Shown: positions 32,581 to 54,837 of the stretch, piece after piece | Layout: each line of letters begins with the position of its first letter | Position numbering within the stretch: the stretch's first letter is position 1 | Origin: Bradymonadia bacterium | GTDB lineage: Bacteria; Myxococcota_A; Bradymonadia; UBA7976; UBA1532 | Assembly: GCA_046290225.1 (NCBI GenBank) | Contig: JBKAGE010000035.1 | Coordinates: forward strand, 96,001-160,000 | Reading direction: 5' to 3' | DNA: 64,000 nucleotides | Notes under the pieces: model-generated | The model's input: the letters and a program-made list of their open reading frames with translations, nothing else | Database searches by the model: none | What the model was told of the DNA's origin: nothing | Made by a program: the position numbers and the translations under genes

Positions 32581-32718
32581 CTCCACCCCCCTGGTTTGGG
32601 GTGTAGTCCTCACCTACCCCCACCATCAAGCTCACCCATTCTCTTGTCGTAACACCCATTCAGGAGTGGTGCGCAGCCGACAGGCTTCGTACGTCAAGTT
32701 GCTGAGGTGGGTGAGCAC

Positions 32719-37097: not shown

Positions 37098-37967
37098 CTA
37101 CACCTTGCCGTCTGCGGTGGCAAGGGCCTGATACAGCTCGGGGCGCCGGTCTCTGAAGAAACCCATGCCCGCCCGGGCCCTCGCCAGGGCCCTCCGATCG
37201 AACCGCGCCACCCGCACCCCGGTCTCGTCGCGACCCATATCAGCCACCAAATCACCCCCCGCGTCGGCGATGAAGGAGCTGCCGTAGAACAGCTGCCCCG
37301 ACTCGTCGCCCACTCGATTCGACGCGGCCACGGGCATCCAGTTGCTCACGGCGTGGCCGATCATGGCCCGGCGCCACGGATCTCGGGTGTCGAAGCTCGG
37401 ATCGTGGGGCTCGGCGCCGATGGCTGTGGGGTAGAGCAGCAGCTCGGCCCCCATGAGGGCCATGGCCCGGGCGGCCTCGGGGAACCACTGATCCCAACAG
37501 ATGCCCACGCCGATGGGCCCCCCGGCGGTCTGCCACACCTTGAAGCCGGTATCCCCAGGCCGGAAGTAGAACTTCTCTTCGTAGCCAGGGCCGTCGGGGA
37601 TGTGGCTCTTGCGATACACACCGAGCTGGCGCCCGTCGGCGTCGATGACCGCGAGGCTGTTGTAGTAGGCCTGCCCAGCCCGCTCGAAGAACGACACAGG
37701 CAAGACCACCTGCAGCTCCGCGGCGAGGGCCTGCATGCGGGCGAGGGTGGGGTGCGACTCGACGGGGTGAGCGAGATCGAAGGCCTCTTCGATCTCTTCC
37801 CGAGGGAAGTACAGCCCCTCGAAGAGCTCTGGCGGCAGGATGATCTTCGCCCCCTGCCCCGCGGCCTCTCGGATCAACGCCTCGATCTGATCGACGTTGG
37901 CCGCCGTGTCGGCGCCAAAGGCCGCCTGGATGATGCCCACGCTCAAGTGGGTTGGGGTGCTGTCCAT
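37098..37967 (-). CDS. aguB: N-carbamoylputrescine amidase
   Basis: ELF, YRKSHIPDGPGYEEKFYF, GICWDQWFPE, YPTAIG.EP. Confidence 0.9.
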   Translation of the reverse strand: MDSTPTHLSVGIIQAAFGADTAANVDQIEALIREAAGQGAKIILPPELFEGLYFPREEIEEAFDLAHPVESHPTLARMQALAAELQVVLPVSFFERAGQAYYNSLAVIDADGRQLGVYRKSHIPDGPGYEEKFYFRPGDTGFKVWQTAGGPIGVGICWDQWFPEAARAMALMGAELLLYPTAIGAEPHDPSFDTRDPWRRAMIGHAVSNWMPVAASNRVGDESGQLFYGSSFIADAGGDLVADMGRDETGVRVARFDRRALARARAGMGFFRDRRPELYQALATADGKV

Positions 37968-37969
37968 GC

Positions 37970-40900
37970 TCAACGCTCCAGGAGATCGACGGCGAGCCGG
38001 CGGTGAAACTCCACCTCGTCGGCGTCGGTGATCTCGTCGTGCCAGTGGTTGAGGGCGGTGTAGATCATCGACGCCACCAAGGCGAGCTCACGGGGCGCGA
38101 TGGCCTGCTCTGCACGCACAGCCTTCATGAGGGGCTGCAACAACGCGTGATCAGGGTTGATGGCGCACCCTTCACCGCTGGCGGTGACCACAGGTGCGTT
38201 CCGTCTCAAGGGGTAGGCCTGCATCTTCAATCGATCGAGGTGCAGGTTGGCCAGCAGCTCGGCGTTGCCTCCGCGGACGCGCTTGAGGGTCTGACGGATG
38301 GCCTCCAGCACTCTGATCTCGGGATCTTCAGGCTGAGACGCCGCCACAGGCTCCGATGCCTGCGAGGCCTTCGCGGGCGCCTCCTCGTGCCACAGAGCCA
38401 GATGCACGAGGCTGTGTGGCCTCTCGTTGAGTGCGGTGAGCACGCTGATGAAGGCGCCACCTTCCACGGCATAGACCGGCACGTCGTACAGATCTTCGAG
38501 GAGGGCGCGCTCGATCCGGCCCATGGCGCTGCCCTCTCGGCGCTCTTGCTGCCTCAACACCGTGACGAGGTGACGCAAGAGCCCTCTCGCCTCCTGTTTG
38601 GCTGCACGCTCCAAGCTGTCGTTCTGAAGCGCTTCGGCGAGATCTCGATAGAGATCGGCCCCCTGACGCTCGAGATAGATGCTCTGATCACGGGTGAGCA
38701 GCGGGGTGCCCTGCTCGATGTTGATGGCTGGCCCCTCGATGGATCCGGCGATGGGCACGGACATCGACGTCCGGGCGAGGGCGCGGCCTTCTTCGCCAAA
38801 GTCGACCGCAGGGTGCTCGGCGTCGAGGGGCAACCAGATCTCACCTCGGAGGCCCCGGTTGTCCACGAGCGTGTGGCCCAGGGTCTGCTCGGGACGCTCT
38901 GGCAAGGGCGGCGCCTTGGTGCGCGCAGCATGGCGCCGGGCAAGCCGGTGGTGATGCTCGGTGTAATCCTGGAAGGCGCCGAAGAACTTCTCCAGGCGCT
39001 TGCGCACGTGAAAGTCGGCGATGAGGACGTGCAGATCAGCCTCTACAGGGGCCTCGATCTCCGGCATCGACGGCAGAAACCGCACCTTGCCTGCCCGCTC
39101 AGCTGCACCGGCGATCGCCTCGAGGCTGGCGAGCGTGCCGTCCACCTGAGGCAAGATGGGCAACTCCCGCAGGCTCTTCAGCAGCCCCTTGCGAGCCTTC
39201 AACGCGTTGGCGCTCTCCAAGGCGAGGTGATCGAGCACGTGCAGACCAGCCTCTTGCCGCTCTGCCTCGGAGAAGCCCGCCCAGGCTTCGAGCACAGCCT
39301 TCATCAGCGCCTTCGGGCTGTCGACGAGGGCCTCGACCATCGCCGTGAGCGCAGGATCATCGCGCCGGATGGCGAGCTGTTCGTCGAGCTTCAACCCAGG
39401 GTGATCCAGGGCGCCGACGAGGGCGCGGCCGTGGGCCACAGTGTGGGTCTGGATCGTCTCCACGTGCCGACCTCGGGTATGCACCATGAGCTGCACGTCG
39501 GTGTGTCGCGGGTGAGGCGTCGTCAGCGCCACAGCGCCTGTCACCGGGCCGCCCTGATCTTCGGAGATGTCGATGGGCACCTCGACGAGCACCCGCTCTG
39601 GCGGCGGCGCGACATCCACCTGGGGCCGCGCTTCGAATCGCGACAACGCCGCCTGACGACGGGCCCACGCCCCAGCGCCGAGGAGGGCCTCACCAAAGAC
39701 CTCTCTCAACAACGAGGCCGACATCTCGCCAAGGGCGATGACAGGCTGCTCGAGATGCTCGGCCCCTGCGCTGTCGGCATACAGCACCGGCGAGCCAGCG
39801 GTGAGCGGCGCACACAGCGCCATGAGGTGGACCGGCCCCTGCTGGCTCGGCCAGATGGGGCGCAGCGCCAGCGCCTCGATGAAGGCCAGCGCCGCAGGCG
39901 GCACCTCACCGGCCCCATCGTCTCCTGGCGTCTCGAGATCACTCCGTTGCCTCGATCCCGCATCCCGAGCGACGGCGGCCACAGAGGTGGGGTCAAGCTC
40001 TCCCCCGCCGGCAAGCCGGCTCTCAATGGCCTCGGCGACAGCCTTCGGGCCGTGGCGCCGGGTGATGCGCATCATCCGGGCCCACTCTTCGACGAGCCGC
40101 TCAGGGGCAGCCTGATGTCGGGCAGCCGCCCATCGGAGATACACTGGCTCAGGGGCGAGAAAGCCCGTAGCCCGACACACAAGCGCCCAGGGCCCACCGG
40201 GCACGCGCTGGCCCCGTGACCGCGCACCGACGAGCTTGCTGACCACCTCGGGCACCAGGTGGGCGAGGGCGTGCCAGGCCTCACGCCTCAGCCCGTCCAT
40301 GCCCCTCTCTACGGCGCTCCAGTGAAGATCGGGTATGAGGGTGTCATCGTTGATCGCAGCAGCGACTGGCCCGATGACGTGATCGGACCGTAGATGATCG
40401 AGCGGGCGGCGGTTGCGCCAGGCCCAAAGCTGCTCAATGGATCCGAGATCTCTCACGGGCGCTCCGAGCACACCGGATCGGCGCCCTTCGATCTGCACCT
40501 GCACCCACATCTCGTCGCTCAGGTACGGATCTCGCGGCCACTTCCCGAAGAAGATCTCTGCCTGATCGCATTGCCGCCGCACCTCGGCGCTCGACAACGC
40601 GCTCGCCGAGGTGAGGGTGGCTCGGCTGTCGCCATGGGGCCACAGCAGCGGCAGCTTCTCGAGGGTGTTCGCGTACAGCCGCCGTGCTGCACGATCGAGC
40701 TGGTTGCGCTTCTGGGCCTCTCGGAACACGAGGGCCAGCTCGAGCAGCACGCGACGGGCAGGTGTCGCCCGCGGATCGTCCTCAGCGAGCCACTGGGGAT
40801 AGGCCTCAGCCAACAGGGTGTACAGGCGATGACCCGCGAGCTCCACCGCTCGACGGCCGCCATCGCCCAGAGCGGCGCTCTGCCAGCTCTCGTCCACCTC

Positions 40901-43900
40901 GACCCGCCGACCCCAGAGCGTGGCGGAGACAGGGTACCGCCCAAAAGCCTCGATGGTGGCCACGGCAAGGCCATCTCCTCCGAGGGTGAGCCTGCGAGGA
41001 TCGTGCGCTTGCTGCCGGTGGAGGTACACCGCCCCCTCGAGGCCGTCTTCCGGATCAGTCAACGCCAGTTTCACCAGCACAGCGTCGTCTTCGGGGATCG
41101 TCAACGGCTCCAGGCTGGCGCGGCGCTGATGGGCTTTCTGATCGAGGGCCCACCGCTCGGAGTAGTCCTGCAAGGCGCCGAAGATGCGCCTGAGCGCCTC
41201 CTGCTCGGCGTCGCTCTCCACCCACAACACCCTGCGCTCCGGATCGACGGGCGACTCTCCCTCTGGAGCGCCGTGAGGCATGTAGAGCAGGGCACCTTCT
41301 CGGGCCCGGCTGCGGGCAGCTTCTTTCAGGGAGATCGTCGGCCCGTTCACCGTGGGCAAGCAGGGCACATCGGCCATCGCCACGCCCGCTTCGGTCTGGA
41401 GCGCCCGATGGCTGCCTTGTCGAGCGAGGGTGTAGAGCACATGGTGCAGCGCCACTTTCCGGTACGCCGGGTCGAGCTCGGGCCATCGCACCACCAGGGC
41501 CTTGATGAGATCAGCTCGGGCTCGCTTGCAGCGTCGGAGCACCCGCTCCAGGGCCGGGCCTTCTGCCACCCCATCGAGATCGTCGTTGAGGGTGAGCCGC
41601 ACATCGTCGATGGCCGCCACCAGCCCTGGATCAGGCGCCGGCGCATGGCCCAGGGGCCGCTTCTCGCGATACACCCGCAGCCCCTCGGGATCAGGGGCGT
41701 CATTCACGCCGAGCTGAAACCGCGACGACAGCCCCACGATGCCGTCCATGCCCACGCCGGTGCGGTTGCCGTCGCCGATGTCGAGGGTGACGAGGGCATC
41801 GCCTGGGGCCAGAGCCACCTCGGCCACAGGGCGGGCGGAGAGCGCCCACTGTCGTCGGGCCTGCTTGAGCCAGTCCGTGGCATCTTCGAAAGACTCAGCC
41901 CCGAACAAACGCTGGAGCAACTCGCGCTCGCTCTTCCCCGGGACCAGCACGAGGCGCTCGGGCTCGAACTCGCAGCGCACCGCCTCGGAGATGTAGAGCT
42001 TCGACTTCGGCGACCAGCTGCGGATCACGTGCAACAGGCTGCACAGCGGTTCACGTTGTCCTGTGGGGGCGTCGCTCTCCGGTGGACCCGCCACGGTGAA
42101 GAGAGGCGCACTCAGCAGCGCCATCAGCGGCCGCGGCGGACCGACCTCGGCCTCGGGCAGCAACGGCCACAGCGCGATCTCGCCGATGGATTCGAGGGCG
42201 TCGCGCATGCCCTGGGCGCTGCGCTTGCGCATGATCAGGGGCAGATGCTCCGGATCACCTTCCACTGCTCGGACCAGTGCGGCGTAGGTGATCAGGGCCG
42301 AGTCGAGGGTGGTCTCACTCTGGTCATCGTCCACCTCTTCCACGAGCCAGCTCAGCGCCCGAATCAACGCTGGATCAGGTACGTATGCCCTCAGGGCCGC
42401 CATGAGCCAGTATCGATCCGAACGGAGCGCCCCCCGCTCGATCACCGCCTCGACGAGGGCGGGCACAGCGCCGAGCACCTGCTCGATGACGGCGTCGTAA
42501 TCAGAGCCCGTGACGATGTCGTCCAGCGAGAGCGTCGACATCAACCGCTCATCGACGAGCGCCACGTGAAAAGGCCCCAGAGGTGATGTCTCTCCCCGCT
42601 GGGTCAGATGTCTACTCTGCCAGAAGACGTCCACCTTCATGGCCCCCCCAGGGCGAGGCACGCTGTGCACGTCGATGGCGCGTTGGGACACCCCGAGCAC
42701 GGCCTGACCCGTGGGCCAGCTCACCGACACCGGCGCCATGGCCCACTGCTCCCCTTCTCCTCTCAAGGCCAGGGCGGTGGTGGTGTTGCGCAGGCGCCAC
42801 AGCCGCACCCGCTCAGACCAGTCCACCGCCTGTTGAAACGATGCACCAGCGTCGACAGCTTTTTGCAACGTGGGGAAGTGCGGGTGATCGACCAAGTGGA
42901 GCTCGGAGGTCACACGGCGCCATGCCTCGGCGGCCTCTCGGGGCAGGCTGGGCACAGCAGGGGCCTCGGGGCTCGTGGACACCCAGTCGATCAAAAGTCG
43001 CCCGATGCGCTGGCGTCGATCCTCCGGCGCCTCGCCGTACTCACCGATCAGCGCACCGTACAGCTTCATCGCGGCGTTGACGAAGCGGCGCTCCAGATCA
43101 TCGCTGAGCCCAGCATGACGCCACGAGGCGTCGACGTCGACGCCTGCCCCTGTCGCGACGGCCATACACGGCAAGTGCGGGTGAAGTTGAACGTGGTCGA
43201 CCACATGACCGTGCTTGCACACCGCCACTCGATCCACCTTGAAGGCTGACGTGCCCTGAGGCAGCGCCCCCTCGGGCACCAACGCCACCCATCCTTCACC
43301 GCCAGGCCAGCTCAAACGCTCCACGGCGAGGGCGGCCTCGGGCACCTCGGGCTGTCGCGCCGTGTGCCGCTGACGACCATGGGCCACAACTGCGGCCTTC
43401 ACCTCGTTCTCCACCAGCGTCGGTGGGGCGAGGCCGGCCCTGAGGGCGTCGCGGCTCTCCACGTCGAGGCGCAGCACCACCCGATCATGGAGCCAGACCG
43501 ACAAGTCAGAGGGTCGGAGCACGGGATCTGGCAACTCGATGTCGCCCATCACCGCCTTGGGGCGCTCACCGTCGAGGTGATCTCTCAGCGCCGAGATCGA
43601 CCACCACTTGCCTGTGAGATCGCGAAAGCACGGGGTGCGTAACAACGCCCCATGACGTTTGCCCGTACGCTGCAATGCTTCGTACACGCGGGGCAGAAAG
43701 TGTGGGTGGGGCTCGCGCACATCGTCCACCGCCTCGGCGAGGCGGGCCATGAGGGCGTCAGTGGCCCTGATGACGGCCTGATGGATCTTTCGACGCCCCG
43801 TGTCCCGGGCGATGGTGGTCAGCTCGGCATCCGCCATGTCTTCGGGGACCTGCAGGCGTGCCACCCGGTGCTTGAGATCGTGATACGTCAAGCGACACAG

Positions 43901-46846
43901 CGCGCGCCCTTCGATGCGCACGTCGACCCAACCGCCTTCTTCACCGCCCCGAGGCAGGCCGACGACGCCCGTGATGTCACCGTGGGTCACCTCTACCTGG
44001 GCCACGACCTCGCCGAGCCCGAGCGCTGTGGGGATGACGGGCTGGGCCATGAAACGCACTCGGCGGGCGCGGGCCTCGATCCATGGCTGAGCATCCACCA
44101 GCGCATGGGGCTGCACGACTTTCTCGAGCCAGCTCCAGGCATCACCGATCACTGGCACCCTCGCGCCCTCGAGCTCTGGTCCCGACTGAGCTCGACGCAA
44201 GGCGTAGAGCCGCCGACCGTTGGCCGCAGCCTCTGCCCGGGCCTCGTCGACGGTCATGGGCACGAGCGGGCCCCGCACGGAGGCTCGATGCATCAACGGG
44301 ATCGACCTCAGGGCCTCGATCAAGGGCCTCAGCGTGCCCTCGCGGGTCTGGGGCAGCCAGCGGTTGTCGAGGGCCGCCGCCAGGACGCCCCGCATTCGAG
44401 CGAGCACATCCCGCGGAGGCAGTGCATCGGCGCTCAGGGCCTGGACCTGCTCGATCACCAGCTGGGTCACCCCCTCGCTGACGAGCTCCAGCGCCTGCGT
44501 GCAGGCCCCGTCGTGCACGATGCCCGACCAGTCGGGGGTGGGCTTGAAAGCCGTGCAATCTACGGTGGCCACGAAGGGCCCCAGCTGCCGTAGGGCGGTG
44601 CTCACCTCGATGGGCGTCTCTGCCAGTAACCGATCGTGCCGCAGCCAGCGCACCACCATGGGTGTGTGTACCGTCTGTCTGCCCGTCCAGAACCACCCCG
44701 ACTTCTGAGGCTCGAGGCGGGCCACCTCACCCTCGAGGGGCATGTCGTTGATCCAGCCAGAGAGGGCGTGCCGCTGCACCGCGTCAGGCGCTTGAATGGC
44801 CGTGACGGGCTTTCTCAGGTGGCTGTCGGCCCACCAGCTGCGGGTGTAGTCTTCAGTGATCTCTGCCCGGGCTTTTCGGCCGAAGACCTGGGTGACCACC
44901 CGCTTCTCTCGCAGATCAAGGCGCACAGCCCGGGGGGGCACCTCACCGGATTTCCCCCAAAAGGGCGCACCGGCGTCGACCCAGGTGATCGGCCCCTCCT
45001 CGCGCCACGCCTGCAGATCGACCAACCGGACCGGCTGCTCGCGCAGGTCGCGAAAGAGCGGGCACCGCATCAGCGCCGTGTCACTGCCCATCACCTGGGC
45101 AGCGGGGCCCTCTTCACCACCCTTGGCCTTCAGCCCCAAGGCCGCCTGGACGAGGCCCTGCCAGCCCTGGTTCGCGCTCAGATAGCGCAAGAGCACATCT
45201 CGCACCGCGTCGTCTGTGGGCCGCTCGATCAGCTGCTCGGCGAGGCGCAGCATCAGCCGCTCCAGCGCCTCGTGGAGCGCCTCGGCAGCCGTCTCCAGCG
45301 CCTCGTCGATCTTCACACCCTCGTAGGTCTCATCGGGGGTGAGATCACCCTGCAGCACCGCCACCAGCCCGGGGATCTCCGAGGGCAAGGTCCGCTCACC
45401 GAGCAGGCAGCCATCGACGATGAGCTTGACGCTGATCCAATCGTCTTCGTTGCCGCGGATGCCGAGCTCGCCCACGAAGCCCTTCCAATCGATGGGCACC
45501 TTGGCCAAACACCACAGCGATCCCAGATCAGGCTGCGCCGTGCGCAACCGCCACGCCTGGCGGTGCCTGGCCCGCACCGCCTCTGCCTCGAGGGCCTCGG
45601 TGACGTCGACCAGCTTGAGGTCGGTGACGCCATGGCTCCTCGCAAAGCCCCACAGCGCCGCTCTGCGCTGATCGTCGAGCACGATCACCCAGGGCTGCTC
45701 GGGCATAGGCACAGTGGGGCCCTCGGTGTGGGTGTAGGGCACCTCGTCGCCTGCCTGGATCCACATCAGCAGAGCCCGAGTGGGGATGGGCTCGCCCAGG
45801 TTGGACAACCACAGGTCGCAGTCGAGCACGGCCCTGGCCACGCCCACCAGCTCGCCACCGAGAGCGTCGAACAGGCGATTGCGCAGCCAGTCGGGGATGA
45901 ACCGCTGTCCGCCCTCTTTCTCCACGAGCATGCGCCACAGCTTTGGCGCCACACCCTTGAGGCCGCGGACGACGTCCCACCACGCAGTGTCCATGACGAT
46001 GTTGCGCTGAGAGACGTCTTTGGTCAGAGCGCCGCTCTGCACAGTGGCCAGGAACCCAGGGGGCAAACCCTCGTCTTCGAGGGTGTGCGTGGTGATCCAG
46101 ACGCCGTCTTTGACGAGGTGCACCGCAGGCGGCTCTTGATTCGCCCGCAGGGCTGCCACCCCCTCATAGTCATTGCCTTTCACCTCGGCAGTGACCTCCC
46201 CCCCGGTCACGAAGAGGCCCCGGGAGACGGTCTTACCGTTCACCACCACCTCGCACTGGGCGTAGCGGCACTTCGTGGTGAGGATCTCCACCTCCCGCAG
46301 GGTGCCCACCATCCACCGGAACACCTCGCTCGCGCTCACGCTGCTCAGAGGCTCTTTCAGGTGAACGTGCGTGCCCGTGGGGGCTGGGTGCAGATCTTTG
46401 AAGCTGTCTCGATCGGCCTCGGCCATTTCGAGCATGGCGCCGGTCTCGCCGTCGCCGCTGGTGACCTTGACGAACTGCGGCGTGAGGGCGGTGGCGGCGT
46501 TGAGGCCGATGGCCAGGGCCTGCCGCGCCTTGAACACTTGCTTCGGCGCCCCACCGTCTTCGCCGAGCAAGGCCTCGTACAGCCTGTCGAAGTCTTCGAG
46601 GGTGAAGGGATCACCGTCAAAGCGCAGATGCATGTCGTCGGTGTCGATCTTGAACTCAAGGCGGCTGGCCCCTTTGAGCACGGCGGCTTCGACGAGCAGC
46701 AACATGTAGTGCAGCGGCTCGGCGAGCTGGAACTTCTGCATCTTCGACCGGGCTTTGTCGCGGTCGAGGGTGAAGCGCCCCTTGGAGTCGATGCGGCCCT
46801 CTGCCTTGAGGGCCTCGATCATGTCGTCGAGGCCGCCTTTGCTCAT
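37970..46846 (-). CDS. Giant ~2,958-aa protein: degenerate GHKL/Hsp90-like N-terminus followed by tandem repeats resembling the Hsp90 middle domain
   Basis: 8.9-kb uninterrupted ORF; N-terminal FTLD..KA..KM.KFQL, FDG, AIG, GT; about 10-11 internal modules; C-terminal INPDHAL. Confidence 0.75.
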   Translation of the reverse strand: MSKGGLDDMIEALKAEGRIDSKGRFTLDRDKARSKMQKFQLAEPLHYMLLLVEAAVLKGASRLEFKIDTDDMHLRFDGDPFTLEDFDRLYEALLGEDGGAPKQVFKARQALAIGLNAATALTPQFVKVTSGDGETGAMLEMAEADRDSFKDLHPAPTGTHVHLKEPLSSVSASEVFRWMVGTLREVEILTTKCRYAQCEVVVNGKTVSRGLFVTGGEVTAEVKGNDYEGVAALRANQEPPAVHLVKDGVWITTHTLEDEGLPPGFLATVQSGALTKDVSQRNIVMDTAWWDVVRGLKGVAPKLWRMLVEKEGGQRFIPDWLRNRLFDALGGELVGVARAVLDCDLWLSNLGEPIPTRALLMWIQAGDEVPYTHTEGPTVPMPEQPWVIVLDDQRRAALWGFARSHGVTDLKLVDVTEALEAEAVRARHRQAWRLRTAQPDLGSLWCLAKVPIDWKGFVGELGIRGNEDDWISVKLIVDGCLLGERTLPSEIPGLVAVLQGDLTPDETYEGVKIDEALETAAEALHEALERLMLRLAEQLIERPTDDAVRDVLLRYLSANQGWQGLVQAALGLKAKGGEEGPAAQVMGSDTALMRCPLFRDLREQPVRLVDLQAWREEGPITWVDAGAPFWGKSGEVPPRAVRLDLREKRVVTQVFGRKARAEITEDYTRSWWADSHLRKPVTAIQAPDAVQRHALSGWINDMPLEGEVARLEPQKSGWFWTGRQTVHTPMVVRWLRHDRLLAETPIEVSTALRQLGPFVATVDCTAFKPTPDWSGIVHDGACTQALELVSEGVTQLVIEQVQALSADALPPRDVLARMRGVLAAALDNRWLPQTREGTLRPLIEALRSIPLMHRASVRGPLVPMTVDEARAEAAANGRRLYALRRAQSGPELEGARVPVIGDAWSWLEKVVQPHALVDAQPWIEARARRVRFMAQPVIPTALGLGEVVAQVEVTHGDITGVVGLPRGGEEGGWVDVRIEGRALCRLTYHDLKHRVARLQVPEDMADAELTTIARDTGRRKIHQAVIRATDALMARLAEAVDDVREPHPHFLPRVYEALQRTGKRHGALLRTPCFRDLTGKWWSISALRDHLDGERPKAVMGDIELPDPVLRPSDLSVWLHDRVVLRLDVESRDALRAGLAPPTLVENEVKAAVVAHGRQRHTARQPEVPEAALAVERLSWPGGEGWVALVPEGALPQGTSAFKVDRVAVCKHGHVVDHVQLHPHLPCMAVATGAGVDVDASWRHAGLSDDLERRFVNAAMKLYGALIGEYGEAPEDRRQRIGRLLIDWVSTSPEAPAVPSLPREAAEAWRRVTSELHLVDHPHFPTLQKAVDAGASFQQAVDWSERVRLWRLRNTTTALALRGEGEQWAMAPVSVSWPTGQAVLGVSQRAIDVHSVPRPGGAMKVDVFWQSRHLTQRGETSPLGPFHVALVDERLMSTLSLDDIVTGSDYDAVIEQVLGAVPALVEAVIERGALRSDRYWLMAALRAYVPDPALIRALSWLVEEVDDDQSETTLDSALITYAALVRAVEGDPEHLPLIMRKRSAQGMRDALESIGEIALWPLLPEAEVGPPRPLMALLSAPLFTVAGPPESDAPTGQREPLCSLLHVIRSWSPKSKLYISEAVRCEFEPERLVLVPGKSERELLQRLFGAESFEDATDWLKQARRQWALSARPVAEVALAPGDALVTLDIGDGNRTGVGMDGIVGLSSRFQLGVNDAPDPEGLRVYREKRPLGHAPAPDPGLVAAIDDVRLTLNDDLDGVAEGPALERVLRRCKRARADLIKALVVRWPELDPAYRKVALHHVLYTLARQGSHRALQTEAGVAMADVPCLPTVNGPTISLKEAARSRAREGALLYMPHGAPEGESPVDPERRVLWVESDAEQEALRRIFGALQDYSERWALDQKAHQRRASLEPLTIPEDDAVLVKLALTDPEDGLEGAVYLHRQQAHDPRRLTLGGDGLAVATIEAFGRYPVSATLWGRRVEVDESWQSAALGDGGRRAVELAGHRLYTLLAEAYPQWLAEDDPRATPARRVLLELALVFREAQKRNQLDRAARRLYANTLEKLPLLWPHGDSRATLTSASALSSAEVRRQCDQAEIFFGKWPRDPYLSDEMWVQVQIEGRRSGVLGAPVRDLGSIEQLWAWRNRRPLDHLRSDHVIGPVAAAINDDTLIPDLHWSAVERGMDGLRREAWHALAHLVPEVVSKLVGARSRGQRVPGGPWALVCRATGFLAPEPVYLRWAAARHQAAPERLVEEWARMMRITRRHGPKAVAEAIESRLAGGGELDPTSVAAVARDAGSRQRSDLETPGDDGAGEVPPAALAFIEALALRPIWPSQQGPVHLMALCAPLTAGSPVLYADSAGAEHLEQPVIALGEMSASLLREVFGEALLGAGAWARRQAALSRFEARPQVDVAPPPERVLVEVPIDISEDQGGPVTGAVALTTPHPRHTDVQLMVHTRGRHVETIQTHTVAHGRALVGALDHPGLKLDEQLAIRRDDPALTAMVEALVDSPKALMKAVLEAWAGFSEAERQEAGLHVLDHLALESANALKARKGLLKSLRELPILPQVDGTLASLEAIAGAAERAGKVRFLPSMPEIEAPVEADLHVLIADFHVRKRLEKFFGAFQDYTEHHHRLARRHAARTKAPPLPERPEQTLGHTLVDNRGLRGEIWLPLDAEHPAVDFGEEGRALARTSMSVPIAGSIEGPAINIEQGTPLLTRDQSIYLERQGADLYRDLAEALQNDSLERAAKQEARGLLRHLVTVLRQQERREGSAMGRIERALLEDLYDVPVYAVEGGAFISVLTALNERPHSLVHLALWHEEAPAKASQASEPVAASQPEDPEIRVLEAIRQTLKRVRGGNAELLANLHLDRLKMQAYPLRRNAPVVTASGEGCAINPDHALLQPLMKAVRAEQAIAPRELALVASMIYTALNHWHDEITDADEVEFHRRLAVDLLER

Positions 46847-48199
46847 CGCCGACGCTCTTCCTCCCCGCCTTGAAAGTCGGGGTCTCCCACGCCGTCCCAA
46901 GTGGTTGATGGATACACTCTATACAGAGAACAAATGAGCAGATAAGTTGAGTAGATGGACATCAAGCGGGCATACCGATTCAGGTTCTACCCGAGCGAAG
47001 AGCAGGCGAAACAGCTTGCCCAGACGTTCGGGTGTGTACGCTTCGTTTACAACTGGGCGCTGAGGTTGCGCAGTGACGCTTGGAAGCAACGCCAAGAGAG
47101 CATCAGCTACGGCCAGTCCTCCGCAGCCCTCACGGCCCTCAAGAAGACCCCAGAGCATGCGTGGCTCAAAGACGTGAGCAGCGTACCTTTGCAGCAAACG
47201 CTTCGCCACCTCAACACAGCGTTTGGCAACTTCTTCGCCAAGCGCGGACGCTACCCGAGGTTCAAGCGCAAGCATGGGTCACAATCAGCGGAGTACACCC
47301 CCAGCGCCTTCAAGTGGGATGGCCAAACCCTCAAGCTGGCTAAGATGAAGCGCCCTCTCGATGTCCGGTGGTCGCGTCAAGTGCCCAAGGGCGCTCGGGT
47401 AACCACGGTGACCGTCTCCAGAGACGCCGCGGGGCGCTATTTCGTGTCCATGCTCGTCGACGACGCCGTAGCACCCTTGCCCAAGGTAAAGGGTCAAGTG
47501 GGCATCGACCTGGGGCTGACACATTTCGCCACATTGTCCACCGGCGAGAAGGTGGCTCCTGCCAACGTCCTGAGAAAACAAGAGAAGAAGCTGGCTCGAC
47601 TGCAGCGACAGATGGCCAGAAAGAAGAAGGGCTCGAGCAACAGAGTGAAAGCCCGCATCAAGATTGCCCGTTTGCATGCCCGCATCGCAGACACACGCAG
47701 GAACTTCCTGCATCAACTCTCCACTCGGCTCGTGCGCGAGAACCAAGTGATTGCCGTGGAGAGCTTGTCCGTGAGCAACATGCTGCGTAACCACTGCCTC
47801 GCCAAATCCATCACCGACGCCAGTTGGTCGGAATTCTTGAGACAGCTTCAATACAAATGCCTGTGGTATGGGCGCACTCTTGTTACCGTCGACCGCTGGT
47901 TTCCGTCCAGCAAGCGATGCTCAAGGTGCGGCTACACCCACACGAAAATGCCGCTCCATGTACGTTCTTGGCAGTGCCCTGAGTGCGGCATCACCCATGA
48001 CCGCGACATCAACGCGGCACGCAACCTTTTGGCCGCCGGGCTGGCGGTTTCTGCCTGTGGAGAGCTTGTAAGACCCACCTGCGCTTCGGCGCAGTTAAGG
48101 CCTTGGCCTTAGGCTTCTGTCGGGCGCGGCTTGTTGAAGCAGGAAGCTCCCCGAAGTGATTCGGGGAATCCCCTTCCTTTAAGTCGGGGAGGATGTCAA
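46847..48199 (+). mobile_element. TnpB-only IS200/IS605-family (IS1341-like) element
   Basis: Follows TCAT (46843-46846); subterminal hairpins at 46863-46882 and 48170-48189; ends GGGGAGGATGTCAA; no tnpA present. Confidence 0.8.
46955..48112 (+). CDS. tnpB: RNA-guided endonuclease TnpB
   Basis: RAYRFRFYP, FGCVRFVYN, RuvC residues in GIDLG, AVESL and HDRDINAA, zinc finger CSRC...CPEC. Confidence 0.95.
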   Translation: MDIKRAYRFRFYPSEEQAKQLAQTFGCVRFVYNWALRLRSDAWKQRQESISYGQSSAALTALKKTPEHAWLKDVSSVPLQQTLRHLNTAFGNFFAKRGRYPRFKRKHGSQSAEYTPSAFKWDGQTLKLAKMKRPLDVRWSRQVPKGARVTTVTVSRDAAGRYFVSMLVDDAVAPLPKVKGQVGIDLGLTHFATLSTGEKVAPANVLRKQEKKLARLQRQMARKKKGSSNRVKARIKIARLHARIADTRRNFLHQLSTRLVRENQVIAVESLSVSNMLRNHCLAKSITDASWSEFLRQLQYKCLWYGRTLVTVDRWFPSSKRCSRCGYTHTKMPLHVRSWQCPECGITHDRDINAARNLLAAGLAVSACGELVRPTCASAQLRPWP

Positions 48200-48219
48200 C
48201 GCCAATCTACCCAGATCTT
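48033..48219 (+). ncRNA. Predicted TnpB omega/reRNA scaffold plus flanking guide (cgccaatctacccagatctt)
   Basis: GCCTGTGGAG...GAAGCAGGAA...GGAATCCCC...GGGGAGGATGTCAA overlapping the tnpB 3' end; 5' boundary approximate. Confidence 0.7.
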
Positions 48220-51024
48220 CACCTGAGCCTCGTCGGGGGCGTGCTTGCCGGGCTCGGCGAGTTCGATGCTGAGCCCCTCGGGGGGCACCTTCACCCCACC
48301 AAAGTAGAGCTTGGGGTTGGCCCACCGTTCCGAGGTGCGATCGTCGAAGCGCTTCACCGCAGGGGCGGGGCGCTTCTCCGTGGGCACCAGCGACTTGCCA
48401 TCGACTCGGTAGAAGACGAGGGCATCCTCGAAGGGCTTGAGGCTGAAGGGAGCGTCGAGGGTGTGCATGTACCGCAGGGTGCGATCGCGCATGCGATAGA
48501 AGATGCTGGGCTCGGTGGGCTTGCCCGGCCCGGCCTTGGGCTTCTTGACGCGGTAGTCGTACAGCTCGCTGGCGCCCCAGTACCGCTCACGGGCTGCGCC
48601 GGGCAGCATCTCGTTGATGATGCGGTAGCTGTACATGAGGCCCCGGCCTTCGTAGGTGATGTCCTGCACCGGAGCCTTGGGCCGATGGCACTCGGCCTTC
48701 AGCTCGGCCTCCGGCAGCCCCACGGGGTACCAGCCCATGTCCCGCACGAAGCAAACGGTCTTGTAGAAGGCCGACTTCATCGCCTCTTGAGCGCTCTCGG
48801 ACTTCAGCTCGTAGCGGGTGTCGAAGGCCTTGTCGTCGCCCTGGAACCACGTGTCGAGGCCCGGCAACTTGATCTCGTTGGGGTTGGCGTCGACGGCGAG
48901 CAGGAACCCCTTGCCCTGACCGTTCGTCGCCGGATCGTTCTCGCTCCAGGCGTAGGCGCCGTCGTAGTACCAGAGCACCACACCCGGGCGGGGCCGCGAG
49001 CGCACCGCCGCCATGGCCTGGGCCTTCGGATCGAAGAAGAACTTCACCCCAGGGCGGGCGAGGCCGGCGTCGTAGCGGTAGTGATCCTTGGCCTCAGCGT
49101 AGGGATCTCGATGCTCCACGAGGTAATAGTGGGGCACCAGCAGGGTGTGCTTGCCGGGGCTGCGGGTGAAGCCGTCGAGGCGCCACTCCGCCGCCGCTCG
49201 GGCCTCGAAGTCGTCGGTGAACATCGCGGCGCCGTCGGCCTTCACAGTGACGTTGTCGATGAGCATGCCCCGCATGACCGCCGCCATGTCGGTGAAGTAA
49301 CGCAGCCGGAACAGCGCCTCTTTGCCCTTGGCCGCGCCGAGATCGAAGCTGACGTTCACCCAGGTGGGCGCCAGGCAGGGGTTCTCCTGCTCGGCGCTTC
49401 GATCTTCCCCGTGAGCCAGCTTCTTCTTGGGATCGCACGCCTTGGCGCTCTCGTTCTTGCCGTCGCCGTCGAGATCACCCGAGAGCCCGGTGAAGCCCGG
49501 CAGGCTCTGCTTGCCGTCGTGGCCGTGCTTGGCGGGCATCATGGCCTTGTCGGTGGGCAGCACCCGGGTCCACGACCGGCCCCCGTCGGTGCTCAGCTCG
49601 GCATAGACGAAGTCCCAGCCCCCCTCGACCTCCCACCAGGCGTCGAAGCTGAGCGTGGCGCTCTTCTTGGCCTCGCGCAGATCGAGGGGCAGGGTGGCGG
49701 TGCGGTTCATCCCGTTGCCCTGGCCGCTGTAGAGGGCCATCTTCCCCTGCTTCTCTGCGAGCTCGGTGAGATCGAGCTTCAGAGTCTTCGGGGGCAGGAT
49801 GATCATGCCCGCCCGCCACAGCCCGGCCTTCTGATTGGCCCGAGCCACCGAAGCGGGGTCGAGAGGATCGTCGAGGGTGCGCAGATAGAATGAAGAGGTG
49901 GGCTTCCCCCCGAAGGCCGGAGGCGTGACGATGATCGGTCGCAGCCACCCGAGCATGATCCGAGACCACGCCGACAGGTTCTGGGGGCTGGGGCTGGCGG
50001 TGCTGCTCATGACCTCCCAGCCACCCGTGGAGTTGCTGCTGCTCCGGGCGTAGATGTCGGGCAGCCCGATGCTGTGACCGAACTCGTGGATGAAGGTGGC
50101 GGCCTCGGTGTACTCGGACTGCATGTTGTAATCGAGAGACCACAGCCCGTTGCCCATGGGCACCCCGCCCCGGGCGTGGGTGCGCCCTTCCACCACGGGG
50201 CCCTGACCCTCGCGCCGCTGGATGGCGAACCGGTGAGGCCACAACCGCTCGGCGCACTCCCGGGCCTCGGGGCTCAGGGTGTCGATGACGTCGGGGGCGG
50301 CGTTGGGGGTGAAGACGGTGTGCAGCTTGTAGAGCCCCTGGCACGAGGACTGACCGCCGCCGGCGTAGATGAGCACGAGGTGATCGAGGTAGCCGTCGGG
50401 CTCGTCGAGCACGCCATCACCGTCGAAGTCGTTGGGATCCCACCGATCATAGGCATCCCAGTCGAGGTTGCCGTGCTGCTTCACCGCAGCCTTGAGGGCC
50501 TCCTCCACGAGCCCCTCGGTCTCGCTGTCATTGCGCCATGAGCCGCCGGCAGGGCGCTTGGGGGCCCCATAGGCAGCCCGAGGCCGCTCGAGCTTCACAG
50601 GAGGCAGCACCTGACCCTGCAGGTGGTAGGTGTTCAGGCTCTGCTGTCGATAGTAGTGGCTCAGCGTGTTGGGCTTGGCGTAGCCCTCGTCGAAGAGCAG
50701 ATCCTCGTAGTAGGCGGTGAGCTTCAGGCCCTGGTTCTTGCTCTCCTTGAACCGCTCAAAGCCTCGATCCTGGAACTCCACGAGCACCACGAGCAGGTTG
50801 TGGGGCTTCTTCTTGCTGGCCCGCACCGGGGGGATGTGATCCCACCGCAGCTGCGGGTTGCCGAGCCGATCGAAGCGCATGGCGGCGAGATCTTGCACCA
50901 TGCGGGCTCTGGCCCCAGAGAGACCCTCTTCACCGATGGGGCCGTCTCCACCCGGGCCGATGGCGCCGGCGGGGGTCATGGTGAGCAGCAACAGGGCGGT
51001 ACACGCGCTGACGATGTGTCGCAT
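48196..51024 (-). CDS. Secreted M6 family (immune inhibitor A-like) metalloprotease
   Basis: Signal peptide; LVVLVEF, EPDGYLDH, HEFGHSIGLPDIY, WEVMS, FRLRYFTD; start set at MRHIVSAC. Confidence 0.9.
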   Translation of the reverse strand: MRHIVSACTALLLLTMTPAGAIGPGGDGPIGEEGLSGARARMVQDLAAMRFDRLGNPQLRWDHIPPVRASKKKPHNLLVVLVEFQDRGFERFKESKNQGLKLTAYYEDLLFDEGYAKPNTLSHYYRQQSLNTYHLQGQVLPPVKLERPRAAYGAPKRPAGGSWRNDSETEGLVEEALKAAVKQHGNLDWDAYDRWDPNDFDGDGVLDEPDGYLDHLVLIYAGGGQSSCQGLYKLHTVFTPNAAPDVIDTLSPEARECAERLWPHRFAIQRREGQGPVVEGRTHARGGVPMGNGLWSLDYNMQSEYTEAATFIHEFGHSIGLPDIYARSSSNSTGGWEVMSSTASPSPQNLSAWSRIMLGWLRPIIVTPPAFGGKPTSSFYLRTLDDPLDPASVARANQKAGLWRAGMIILPPKTLKLDLTELAEKQGKMALYSGQGNGMNRTATLPLDLREAKKSATLSFDAWWEVEGGWDFVYAELSTDGGRSWTRVLPTDKAMMPAKHGHDGKQSLPGFTGLSGDLDGDGKNESAKACDPKKKLAHGEDRSAEQENPCLAPTWVNVSFDLGAAKGKEALFRLRYFTDMAAVMRGMLIDNVTVKADGAAMFTDDFEARAAAEWRLDGFTRSPGKHTLLVPHYYLVEHRDPYAEAKDHYRYDAGLARPGVKFFFDPKAQAMAAVRSRPRPGVVLWYYDGAYAWSENDPATNGQGKGFLLAVDANPNEIKLPGLDTWFQGDDKAFDTRYELKSESAQEAMKSAFYKTVCFVRDMGWYPVGLPEAELKAECHRPKAPVQDITYEGRGLMYSYRIINEMLPGAARERYWGASELYDYRVKKPKAGPGKPTEPSIFYRMRDRTLRYMHTLDAPFSLKPFEDALVFYRVDGKSLVPTEKRPAPAVKRFDDRTSERWANPKLYFGGVKVPPEGLSIELAEPGKHAPDEAQVKIWVDWR

Positions 51025-51104
51025 GGAGACTCCACGGTGATCGGGCCAGATGATCAGGACCGTGTCGTCATAGCTGATTTTCGGTGGAGTGTCGTGGTGA
51101 CGCG

Positions 51105-53774
51105 TCAGGGCACTTCGAGGCACTCGAAGAACAGGTTGATGTCGCAGATGCCCAGCTCAGCAGTCTCGATGGCACATTGCGCCACGGGATCTGCAGGGTC
51201 CAGCTCACCACCAGGGCATAGAATCTCCTGGCAGAACCCCGGCGGGAAGATCCCGCACTCCTCAACCAGCCCGCAAATCTCCTGGCACGTGGGCACCGGG
51301 TCAAAGCACGCCGCCACAGCCCCGGCATCGCACACGCCATTGTTCACCGCTGCCCCCACACAGGCTGGCAGCGCCTGCAAGAACTCCGGAGGGCTGCTGG
51401 GGCTGCCTGCGAGGCCAGCGCAGTCCACCTGACAGTCACCATCAGCCCCCCAGGGCGCCGGGCATGGTGCAGCGGTCTCACACGCAGTGACACAGGCCTC
51501 AGGGATCACCTCGTCGAGGGCCAGACACGCCTGTATGCCTCGGCACCCAGCCACTTCTATACAAGCAAGCTGTACATCGAGAGGCGCCGGATCAGGGGTG
51601 CACTGGCGCTCGCACAAGAAGACGTCGAGCTGAGGATCACAGGCGAGCTGCCCCTGGCAGAGCGCCTGGCAATCAGCGCTGGGTTGCTCACCCTCGAAGC
51701 CTGTACATGCCGCCACGGCACCGCAGCCCTGTTCGAGACGCACCGACTCGGCGACGCAGGCCGCCTCTGCAGGCAGCACACCCTCGACGCAAGCCGCGGC
51801 GCAGCCCTCGTCGGCCACGCCACACCCCACCGCAGCCTCGCAGTAGGCACCACAGCTCACCTCGGCCTCGAGCGGATCGACACACGCGCGGAGCACATCA
51901 CAGGTCGCCGTGGGGGGGAGATTGGCGAGGCACTCACCGGACTGCAGCCTCAGCGCATCTTCTGGCGGCAGCGCTCGACCACACGACCTCATACATGCCT
52001 CGAGGGTCCGATCTGCCTCAGGATCACACTCGGTGGTGGCCCGGCAATACTGGTAGCAGGGCGTCATCTCTGGCGCCGCCCCGCGTCCGACCTCGTTTTC
52101 GCACTCGAAGACGCTGAACGTGCTGCCGAGGGCCGACTCGCAGACCGGCGCTGCGCCGGTACACGCCACCTGCTCCACCACGAAGGCAGCATCGACCAGG
52201 TGGTTGTCGTCACATCGAAGGGCGCAGCTCTCCACATCACGCTCGAAGCCACATTCGAGGCGGCGATCGCAATACACGTCACAGGCTGGGGGCTCAGGCG
52301 GTGTGCAGGCCGCCATGGCATCGCAGTCATCGCCCGCTTCGGCCACGCAGGCGCGCCATTGTTGCTGTCGCTGAGGCGCGAAGCCTTCCACACACGCTTC
52401 GATGCAGCCTTCTGCATTGCCGGCAGCAGGTGGCAAACCACACCCGTCGAGGGCCCCACACCACTCACCGCAGATGGCCTCAGGGCTCACACCATCAAGA
52501 CAGCCCGTGAGCGCACCACATGTTTGCGCAAAACGACACGCCAGCGCCTCGGTCTGCGCCAGGGCCGGATCTCCACCGAGCCTGAGGGTGTCGACACACT
52601 GCTGATTGCATTGGGCGAGGTTCACATCCTCGGGCAACAGCCCGCACACCGACTGCGCCTCGCACAACGCAGGGCATTGAGCAGCGGCACCGCCATTGCC
52701 GCCTCCTCCACCTTCGAAGCAGCGCTCCAAGGCGTTGAAGTCACACTGACCGTTCACGAGCACCTGGCTCACGGTGCATTCGAGGATCGGCTCGAAGAAG
52801 ATCGGATCTTCTTCCAAGATGAGGCCACATTCGAGCAGGCAATCTTCGAAAATGGGCTGACACTGGCCAATGACATCGCAGAACGCGCGGCAGTCCGCCA
52901 CGGGTGGCGGATCTCCGGGCTCCGGCACCTCGAAACACTCCGCCACGGCGCCGCAAGCATCGCCGGCGATGCGCACACAGCTGTTGCGCTGCTCTCCACG
53001 CAGGCGGGCGAGGGGATCGACCGCATTGATCTGCGCGATGCACTCCGGCACGCAGGTGGCGCGATCTTCGATCCCACACTCCACGGCAGCCTGACAGCGG
53101 GTCCCACACTCTTGATACACGGACTCACCCAGGCAGCCCCAGAATGCCTCCTCCTGGCACACGCCCACGAGAGACTCGCCACAGGCAGAGAAAGCGCTCT
53201 GCCCGTCTGCCTCCCAGCCTTCACAGGTGGCGACACATGTCCCGATCGGATCAGCGAGCCCGCACCCCTCAGCGGCTTCGCACACCTCGGCGCAGGTCAA
53301 CGCGGGGGGCTCGGGCAACGGGCAGAACCGCAGAGTGCCGCAGGCCTCGGCCCCCAGGCATTCGAACCAGACCTCGGGTGCCCCGCTGCTGCTCGACCGC
53401 TCACAGGCGGTGAGGCAGGCCTCGAGGCTGCCCCAGTCACGGGCAATACGCTCGCAGTCCTCGAAGCGTCCGCAGGCCTCTTCACACGAGTCGATTTCCA
53501 CGGGCACGAAGGCATCAGAGGCCATCATCATGTCGGGCGGTGAGGCATCTGAAGGCTCAGCGTCTACATCGATCGCCCCATCGATACGCATCATCGCATC
53601 TGGAAGCACCTCACCGGCGTCAGCCTCCAAGCCCATGTCAGGGCTCAGCGATCCATCAGTCACCACCCGGCCTGTGTCGGGGGTTTCCGGATCAACCTCG
53701 CTGGCTTCTTCCACCGTGCAGCCCCAGGCCAGCAACACCACCCACACCCACCACCGGCTCAACGCGTTCACCAT
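51105..53774 (-). CDS. Large Cys-rich repeat lipoprotein (~889 aa)
   Basis: Start MVNALSRWW...AWGC; many CxxxCxxxxxCG...CxxxC modules. Confidence 0.78.
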   Translation of the reverse strand: MVNALSRWWVWVVLLAWGCTVEEASEVDPETPDTGRVVTDGSLSPDMGLEADAGEVLPDAMMRIDGAIDVDAEPSDASPPDMMMASDAFVPVEIDSCEEACGRFEDCERIARDWGSLEACLTACERSSSSGAPEVWFECLGAEACGTLRFCPLPEPPALTCAEVCEAAEGCGLADPIGTCVATCEGWEADGQSAFSACGESLVGVCQEEAFWGCLGESVYQECGTRCQAAVECGIEDRATCVPECIAQINAVDPLARLRGEQRNSCVRIAGDACGAVAECFEVPEPGDPPPVADCRAFCDVIGQCQPIFEDCLLECGLILEEDPIFFEPILECTVSQVLVNGQCDFNALERCFEGGGGGNGGAAAQCPALCEAQSVCGLLPEDVNLAQCNQQCVDTLRLGGDPALAQTEALACRFAQTCGALTGCLDGVSPEAICGEWCGALDGCGLPPAAGNAEGCIEACVEGFAPQRQQQWRACVAEAGDDCDAMAACTPPEPPACDVYCDRRLECGFERDVESCALRCDDNHLVDAAFVVEQVACTGAAPVCESALGSTFSVFECENEVGRGAAPEMTPCYQYCRATTECDPEADRTLEACMRSCGRALPPEDALRLQSGECLANLPPTATCDVLRACVDPLEAEVSCGAYCEAAVGCGVADEGCAAACVEGVLPAEAACVAESVRLEQGCGAVAACTGFEGEQPSADCQALCQGQLACDPQLDVFLCERQCTPDPAPLDVQLACIEVAGCRGIQACLALDEVIPEACVTACETAAPCPAPWGADGDCQVDCAGLAGSPSSPPEFLQALPACVGAAVNNGVCDAGAVAACFDPVPTCQEICGLVEECGIFPPGFCQEILCPGGELDPADPVAQCAIETAELGICDINLFFECLEVP

Positions 53775-54005
53775 GACCAACCTCCTCCTCTCGCTTCTGA
53801 CGACCCCGGTGCACCCAACATACCAAGAGGTCCCAGACTGTAGACACCTCCCACAGGTGTAACCGTGTCGCCTACAGAGATCGGGAATATTACGGAGTGG
53901 TGGTGCCTGAATGACTGCCCACGAGGGGGGGTCTGTTGCGGGTGTCAGGGCGAGCACGACTTGCCCGAACCAATACTCAGAAAACAAAACTTTGAGAGGT
54001 ACACC

Positions 54006-54791: not shown

Positions 54792-54837
54792 ACGACTCAC
54801 GACGCTCACATTTTCGACCGCCTGACGTCAGATTTCT

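Follow-up and report, generated by a model that had tools for sequence, protein, structure and literature searches.

A giant protein with the domain order of Hsp90

The window analyzed here comprises 64,000 nucleotides (nt) of a Bradymonadia bacterium (assembly GCA_046290225.1, contig JBKAGE010000035.1, positions 96,001 to 160,000). On its minus strand lies a single open reading frame (ORF) of 2,958 codons for amino acids (aa), running from an ATG at position 46846 to a stop codon at 37970; its product is referred to below as the giant. From its N-terminus, this protein has a head with the Hsp90 fold, then 11 middle-domain units in tandem and lastly a C-terminal domain of the Hsp90 type (N*-M11-C; the boundaries of units and domains, given in Table 1, are approximate). 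Its head has lost the residues that bind ATP, and in related genomes genes for such dead heads are paired with a gene for an intact ATPase. An earlier inspection of this DNA (the sequence-only reading) had proposed the ORF and quoted 13 motifs from it; the ORF was confirmed and all 13 motifs were found at the expected places.

At threshold, the giant has no hit in Pfam, NCBIfam or PADLOC, and no match was obtained when the head was compared with PDB sequences by phmmer. When the full-length protein was used in a word-index search, just one of 7,999 candidates proved to be a relative (P0002); this homologue, 42% identical to the giant, holds all 11 units in register with it.

AlphaFold2 models were obtained for residues 1-700 (64 sequences; predicted local distance difference test score [pLDDT], 90.6) and 2411-2958 (49 sequences; pLDDT, 91.8). 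Every match listed by Foldseek for the first model was TRAP1 or Hsp90, and residues 18-417 align with the N-terminal domain and the whole middle domain of these proteins (Z scores of 16-17.7, root-mean-square deviation [rmsd] of about 4.5, at most 380 residues). MORC ATPases came next in the fold search, with Z scores of about 16 over shorter ranges. The second model matches structures comprising the middle and C-terminal domains of Hsp90. When unit 10 was compared with 48,161 chains, the top matches were to the GRP94 middle domain (Z 10.2, rmsd 5.9, 203 aligned residues), and the HtpG middle domain scored similarly (Z 9.4, rmsd 5.9, 206 aligned residues). The tail of the giant matched Hsp90 C-terminal domains (Z 7.7 for 8oxu and 6.7 for 1sf8), with the zincin Wss1 level at Z 7.8; because of this tie, the assignment of the C-terminal domain leans on the INPDH motif and on context. 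The GHKL N-terminal, middle and C-terminal folds are present in the order found in Hsp90. Comparison of predicted folds, which had been named beforehand as a check on the repeats, returned the Hsp90 middle domain for the modelled unit 10, and the N-terminal and middle domains for residues 18-417.

Tandem repetition of the middle domain

Self-comparison of the uncut protein with BLAST or phmmer revealed only the diagonal, and it was therefore necessary to divide the giant into 120-aa chunks. Among the non-overlapping chunk pairs, 39 of 2,346 scored at least 60, compared with none of 3,000 shuffled pairs. A profile built from the first units of homologues alone picks out eight further units in the giant (21-66 bits). 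A refined profile, trained on a pool that contained the giant itself, detects 10 units at 14-106 bits, while the best of 101 reversed or shuffled controls reached 1.6 bits. Unit 8 scores below 10 bits in the giant; the same unit scores in P0002, P0007 and P0010, members of about 3,000 aa, and it aligns with unit 5 (score 82). Unit 10 was placed by fold search and units 3-9 by profile matches only, and unit 2 lies within the model of residues 1-700.

Units 1 and 2 are followed by three triplets of approximately 650-740 aa each, every one of which closes with a shortened unit (units 5, 8 and 11). To judge from their alignment, the second and third triplets are clearly duplicates of each other (score of 183 between units 7 and 10); the first triplet shows a weaker likeness to both. 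The sequence-only reading had counted some 10-11 repeats, which agrees with the 11 units and with chunk-pair and profile scores above those of the shuffled and reversed controls. It had also described the repeat as a middle-domain-like module of the S5 type; the relationship to the Hsp90 middle domain holds, but the repeating unit is a whole middle domain (about 245 aa), and three of the units are shortened.

The dead ATP site of the head family

At the positions of the ATP-binding motifs (ExxxN, DxGxG and GxxGxG) the giant carries L50, A54, F76, P80 and A112. The comparison covered 201 heads in one alignment: the giant, 149 database proteins and 51 heads taken from loci. The Mg-binding Asn and the adenine-binding Asp are found in none of the 201. 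The second Gly of DxGxG is kept in 17 heads, the catalytic Glu in 113 (Leu in the giant) and the catalytic-loop Arg in 20 (Gln280 in the giant). Judging by this alignment, the loss of nucleotide-binding residues is family-wide and not peculiar to the giant, and the eroded ATPase head recognized from the letters alone is borne out. The N-terminal strand G-x-F-T-L-D is among the best-kept parts of the head (G in 177/201, F in 189/201). Positions 40-260 of the head profile match the giant once, and internal matches are limited to the middle-domain part.

Proteins with a dead head mostly comprise 1,250-1,750 aa, with 3-5 units detected in each; a length above 2,750 aa was observed in six. The same C-terminal domain is present in 126 of 170 complete dead-head proteins, whereas WD40 or TPR repeats form the tail in 3 of 39 scanned. 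The proteins in which such repeats replace the Hsp90 C-terminal domain are encoded at L033:656-3181, L124:16729-18432 and L125:8197-9987. In three others (P0048, P0103 and P0134) the dead head stands behind an N-terminal hydrophobic, membrane-anchor-like segment and a domain of about 200 aa, which suggests that they are membrane-tethered versions.

Pairing of dead heads with an intact ATPase

In the loci around 40 head matches, the gene directly upstream usually encodes a protein of 500-600 aa (approx. 540 aa) with intact GHKL motifs. HtpG is the best solved match of the profile of this partner family (E 1e-15), which covers TRAP1 nearly end to end; the ATPase and dead-head families are paralogues (hhalign 99.4%, 315 columns). 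All of the residues E, N, D, G, G, G, G, G, T and R are kept in 77 of 77 partner ATPases, with E and N invariant by selection, since these rows had been filtered for the RELxQN motif. One member, encoded on contig C61 of the genome studied here, has only five residues before its first helix and lacks the N-terminal beta1 strand of HtpG; by inspection, the leaders of 76 relatives are also short and share no beta1-like motif.

A set of 160 loci was then assembled with the ATPase as sole criterion: the 80 best of 314 found in GTDB contigs, plus the 80 best of 349 from metagenomes. Twenty of them end too soon, and in 125 of the 140 informative loci the dead-head gene lies directly downstream of the ATPase gene. 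In 45 of 76 pairs there is a 4-nt overlap between the two reading frames, a count favored by the choice of the start nearest to the stop. Among 401 genomes of the phylum, both genes were detected in 83, the head only in one, the ATPase only in two and neither in 315, so that about a fifth of the sampled genomes carry the pair; in the single genome with a head only, the match lies near a contig start. Within the 28 genomes of the taxonomic family, the same six have both head and ATPase. The ATPase, the dead head, the repeats and the C-terminal domain are fused into one chain in seven proteins of 1,832-1,886 aa, whose mutual identities range from 46 to 97%.

The pairing of a dead head with an intact ATPase is near-obligate. 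A survey of gene neighborhoods, proposed in the sequence-only reading, disclosed in relatives an ATPase gene directly upstream of the dead-head gene, a partner which that reading had missed, but no conserved operon with the M6 protease and aguB genes found near the giant.

The family numbers 1,928 clusters at 50% identity (E<=0.001). Cultured carriers of the pair are Plesiocystis pacifica, Nannocystis punicea and Paraliomyxa miuraensis; others are metagenome-assembled genomes labelled Bradymonadales, Vulcanimicrobiota and Elusimicrobia. These carriers, in part, suggest Myxococcota as the phylum of the window. The tree of the heads, computed with FastTree, has support values of 0.70-0.94. Examples of fusions are L154:3534-9056, P0127 and P0151-P0155, and arrays of two to five dead-head paralogues around one or two ATPase genes occur in loci L129, L149, L111 and L160.

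The likely partner in this genome

The genome contains one intact pair, on contig C79, and one ATPase gene without a dead-head neighbor, at C61:6429-8045. The product of the latter matches Pfam HATPase_c_3 and, by profile, HtpG and TRAP1 in the PDB, and it carries all of the ATP-site residues together with the loop Arg. It groups with the ATPases that flank the nearest relatives of the giant (SH-aLRT 93, in a quick tree whose careful search was incomplete), and the similarity profiles of the giant over 76 pairs follow those of this ATPase (rho 0.88) rather than those of the C79 enzyme (0.39). On these grounds the C61 ATPase is likely to be the cognate partner of the giant.

The aguA gene overlaps the start of the C61 ATPase gene (C61:5374-8045, locus L071); aguA and aguB are each present in a single copy. 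The two are adjacent in all three other genomes of the family that have both. Since here they are separated, each attached to one gene of the pair, this arrangement suggests a former aguA-ATPase-giant-aguB block that was later split.

Two further sets of related genes were observed in the genome: a canonical-looking htpG on contig C38 (recognized by motif), and a divergent HtpG-like gene at C82:253896-260213, followed by two paralogous genes for about 750 aa which begin with a similar motif.

Model of a proposed N-terminal heterodimer

Residues 1-530 of the C61 ATPase were modelled together with residues 3-432 of the giant, ATP and Mg. The complex scored 0.68, against 0.32 for the best control; the mark applied is reached by 116 of 157 solved complexes and by 2 of 215 mismatched pairs. 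The runs share at least 88% of their contacts, and the pLDDT of the partner is at least 83. The tightest contacts, which had been expected before modelling, join residues 18-27 of the giant to residues 130-135 and 78-80 of the ATPase. In the model of the giant as a monomer this strand is poorly ordered (pLDDT of about 60). In the complex, the giant is predicted to lend the N-terminal strand that the ATPase family lacks, an interface which we take to resemble the N-terminal strand swap of closed Hsp90. The result supports binding, although it stops short of showing it.

Proposed mechanism and alternatives

We consider it probable that the giant contributes the pseudo-ATPase side of a heterodimeric clamp of the Hsp90 type, the side that faces the substrate, with strand-completed closure and a long client-engaging arm; that the two proteins form a heterodimer, whatever its purpose, seems to us very probable. 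The architecture, the dead site and the pairing are computational results, whereas dimer formation and activation are what we infer. The giant and the ATPase of about 540 aa would pair, probably via their C-terminal domains as in Hsp90, and ATP would be bound only in the small subunit. On closure, the beta1 strand of the giant would complete the edge of the ATPase sheet of the partner and contact its lid, and because of these contacts the dead head may license hydrolysis as a pseudoenzyme activator. The weakest step of the scheme concerns the chain of middle domains, which would serve as a single, very long arm: it would bind or encircle large protein clients, and these would be held and let go in step with a one-sided ATP cycle.

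Several observations weigh against this interpretation. The giant and the ATPase genes are unlinked, on different contigs, both here and in genome G341. Of the loci chosen by their ATPase, seven have a dead-head gene only elsewhere in the locus and eight have none (one of these eight is a fusion); moreover, some of the 160 duplicate each other or the seed loci of the profile, and kin are not independent. The pass of the complex model may reflect likeness, because closed Hsp90 dimers are among the solved structures, and close cousins of a true partner also pass. Its calibration is only roughly valid, as our own alignments and the ligand were supplied, and the modelling covers the N-terminal heterodimer only. 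The catalytic-loop position is W, Y or L in the internal units of the giant, and we know of no precedent for an arm of 11 middle domains set against an arm of one.

The same heterodimer could instead be an ATP-gated defence or conflict sensor, whose variable arm recognizes foreign or damaged proteins and whose ATPase switches unlinked effectors. The patchy distribution (the family has it in six of 28 genomes and the phylum in 84-85 of 401), the multiple dead-head paralogues that accompany one ATPase in some loci (five of them in L129 and three in L149), the variable repeat number and the occasional WD40 or TPR tails would all fit such a role, and Hsp90-like NTPases do serve as immune switches elsewhere, according to the accessible parts of two sources (10.64898/2026.09.30.754977, 10.64898/2026.10.19.760177). 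We nevertheless regard it as unlikely: the repeats and the C-terminal domain tile the whole giant and leave no effector domain, most complete dead partners share one C-terminal domain, PADLOC has no match to the giant, and the ATPase matches TmtA over the generic N-terminal domain only. Furthermore, the recurring neighbors of the pair, identified by eye from the sequence, are kinases, ABC transporters, SPFH and lipoprotein-like genes; nucleases, methylases and helicases are not among the 40 largest neighbor clusters (216 loci, inspected by eye with crude gene calls partly contaminated by antisense frames).

Alternatively, the pair might regulate a larger machine that assembles or remodels one dedicated structure. 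One or more of three genes, A (coiled-coil), B and C (an AAA+ ATPase), adjoin the pair in 19 of the 93 loci with room upstream (ABC in nine, AB in five, B in three, BC in two), in records labelled Myxococcales, Bradymonadales, Elusimicrobia and others, and A and B are also present in this genome (C37:66210-68240). However, 74 of the 93 loci have none of the three, gene C was not found in this genome with the profile used, A and B have no family match, and B (about 350 aa) has no informative look-alike. Such a machine appears distinctly unlikely.

The sequence-only reading had favored a lone ATP-independent holdase or scaffold; in this case the giant would form a homodimer via its C-terminal domain and the ATPase would no longer be needed. 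Its Hsp90 origin, the loss of the ATP site and the amplification of the middle domain all stand, but the lone role is probably wrong, because the family almost never occurs without an intact ATPase partner and is sometimes fused to it. The giant does have a C-terminal domain of its own, and in two genomes its gene is not beside an ATPase gene; both of these genomes, however, retain an ATPase of the family elsewhere. A dead head without a detected ATPase was seen in only one of 84 genomes, and the beta1 strand is among the best-conserved parts of the head; with natural ATPase-dead-head fusions added, we judge this explanation very improbable.

The preferred clamp may exemplify something broader. 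Tentatively, and with rather more doubt than conviction, we propose an obligately asymmetric and widespread class of Hsp90, in which the ATPase would be unable to close without the strand of its dead partner and an arm of 1-11 middle domains would set the size or identity of the client. If this is true, one motor serves interchangeable arms, of which the giant is the longest seen here.

Relation to known systems

Hsp90 is taught as a homodimer, and engineered heterodimers have been used to ask whether its two ATP sites work in turn. Engineered TRAP1 heterodimer constructs are among the structure matches of both the partner profile and the giant model. If the proposed pair is real, a natural combination of one live and one dead subunit, with a swapped strand on one side only, would make the question of sequential ATP sites directly testable. 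Proteins with up to 11 copies of the middle domain also form a natural series in which to ask what this domain binds.

The giant resembles the Hsp90 family (HtpG, TRAP1, GRP94 and Hsp82) in having the three folds in the same order. It differs in the absence of the ATP-binding residues and the loop Arg, in having 11 middle domains in a chain where Hsp90 has one and, if the model is correct, in forming an apparently active/dead heterodimer with the beta1 strand on one side only. Paralogous subunits within one dimer are known from the heterodimeric MutL proteins (MLH1-PMS2), in which both bind ATP and which act on DNA, and in kinase-pseudokinase pairs a dead subunit activates its partner. In contrast to MutL, the best fold matches of the giant are to Hsp90, over the full middle domain and the C-terminal domain.

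Sacsin and Tiamat/NO VEIN are likewise very large proteins with Hsp90-related modules, and sacsin, as described in the accessible parts of two sources, repeats such modules three times (10.64898/2026.09.30.754977, PMC3710099). There, however, the repeated module contains the ATPase, whereas the giant repeats the middle domain only and has a single dead head; Pfam SACS gave no match in the giant. Tiamat combines an active ATPase with a nuclease, as far as the available text goes (10.64898/2026.09.30.754977), unlike the giant, which has a dead head and no effector domain across its whole length. Prokaryotic MORC/paraMORC systems and Hsp90-like immune ATPases (HD/phosphoesterase fusions) share the GHKL+S5 engine. 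In the portions seen of the respective papers, MORC/paraMORC-type systems sometimes have two GHKL genes in one neighborhood (PMC2292703) and the immune switches have variable C-termini (10.64898/2026.09.30.754977, 10.64898/2026.10.19.760177). In these ATPases, unlike the dead heads, the catalytic motifs are preserved, and nucleases, helicases, methylases or fused effectors accompany them; none of the first three was seen among the 40 largest neighbor clusters inspected around the pair, and the giant has no effector domain. The giant is not a sacsin, Tiamat or MORC system.

No description of an active/dead Hsp90 pair or of repeated middle domains was found in the literature covered, which included few subscription papers and no preprint supplements. 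The same holds for the accessible parts of PMC1525184, PMC3710099, PMC2292703, PMC7159879, 10.64898/2026.09.30.754977 and 10.64898/2026.10.19.760177; in what was available of PMC7159879 the term 'hsp90' does not occur. The ATPase/dead-head gene pair is apparently undescribed, and with it a large family whose dead subunit escapes Pfam, NCBIfam and PADLOC.

Local context of the gene

Table 1. Features of the giant and of its immediate surroundings in the window
Feature	Positions	Strand	Basis
Pseudo-ATPase Hsp90-like giant, 2,958 aa	37970..46846	-	ORF; full-length homologue P0002 at 42% identity
Degenerate GHKL head, aa 1-204; N-terminal helix and beta1 strand kept; ATP-binding Asn, Asp and glycine loop absent	46235..46846	-	
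Conserved beta1 strand, aa 18-27; predicted swap onto partner ATPase	46766..46795	-	G23 177/201, F25 189/201
Middle-domain unit 1, aa ~205-436; Gln280 at catalytic-loop Arg position	45539..46234	-	Profile, fold, alignment
Middle-domain unit 2, aa ~437-689	44780..45538	-	Profile, AlphaFold2 model, alignment
Units 3, 4 and shortened unit 5, aa ~690-1349; first triplet, most diverged	42800..44779	-	Chunk scores, profile
Units 6, 7 and shortened unit 8, aa ~1350-2094; second triplet	40565..42799	-	Chunk scores, profile
Units 9, 10 and shortened unit 11, aa ~2095-2834; third triplet; unit 10 folds as whole Hsp90 middle domain	38345..40564	-	Profile, model
Hsp90/HtpG-type C-terminal domain with INPDH motif, aa ~2835-2958	37973..38344	-	Model, fold search
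IS200/IS605-family element, tnpB only (ORF 46955-48112), 1,353 bp; not part of the system	46847..48199	+	Context
M6 (InhA-like) metalloprotease gene; local neighbor only	48196..51123	-	Library scan
aguB (N-carbamoylputrescine amidase), 2 nt past the stop of the giant	37098..37967	-	Library scan

The tnpB element, which has two relatives in the genome (on contigs C35 and C64), sits exactly at the former overlap between the stop of the M6 protease gene and the start of the giant gene. Its right end provides the stop codon of the M6 gene. Its 48-nt left-end hairpin segment (46847-46894) is inverted relative to the copies at C35:40025 and C64:11644, and as a consequence a GGAGG-type sequence lies approximately 13 nt before the ATG of the giant. 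Because the M6 stop overlapped the start of the giant, the operon of these two genes predates the insertion. The operon proposed in the sequence-only reading is therefore partly upheld, with aguB downstream and the M6 overlap before the insertion; however, tnpB now lies directly upstream and the context is not conserved.

The element was also considered as the break between the ATPase and the giant. This was rejected, since it lies in the former M6/giant overlap, which makes the split of the pair older than the insertion. That the giant gene survives here only as a decaying relic, severed from its partner and promoter by the 1,353-bp element immediately before its start codon and with its partner unlinked, is exceedingly improbable, given an intact frame of 8.9 kb, the 11 units kept in register in P0002 at 42% identity, a pLDDT above 90 for both modelled parts and the GGAGG-type sequence provided by the left end of the element.

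Related loci L031-L250 contain no match to the M6 protease, and a functional link with the giant was rejected for this reason. An aguB-like match was found in one related locus, away from the pair (L224, 40%).

Examples of the conserved A/B/C trio, which adjoins the pair in several phyla, lie at L160:2478-6267, L129:505-4185, L101:6158-9972 and L246:2446-6358. Upstream of the M6 gene, a 1,234-aa ORF on the minus strand (51105-54809) has no Pfam match. Its beginning resembles an antisense shadow, and the actual gene there is probably shorter. On the other side of the giant, the plus strand (32707-35226) encodes a methyl-accepting chemotaxis protein with dCache, HAMP and C-terminal PilZ domains.

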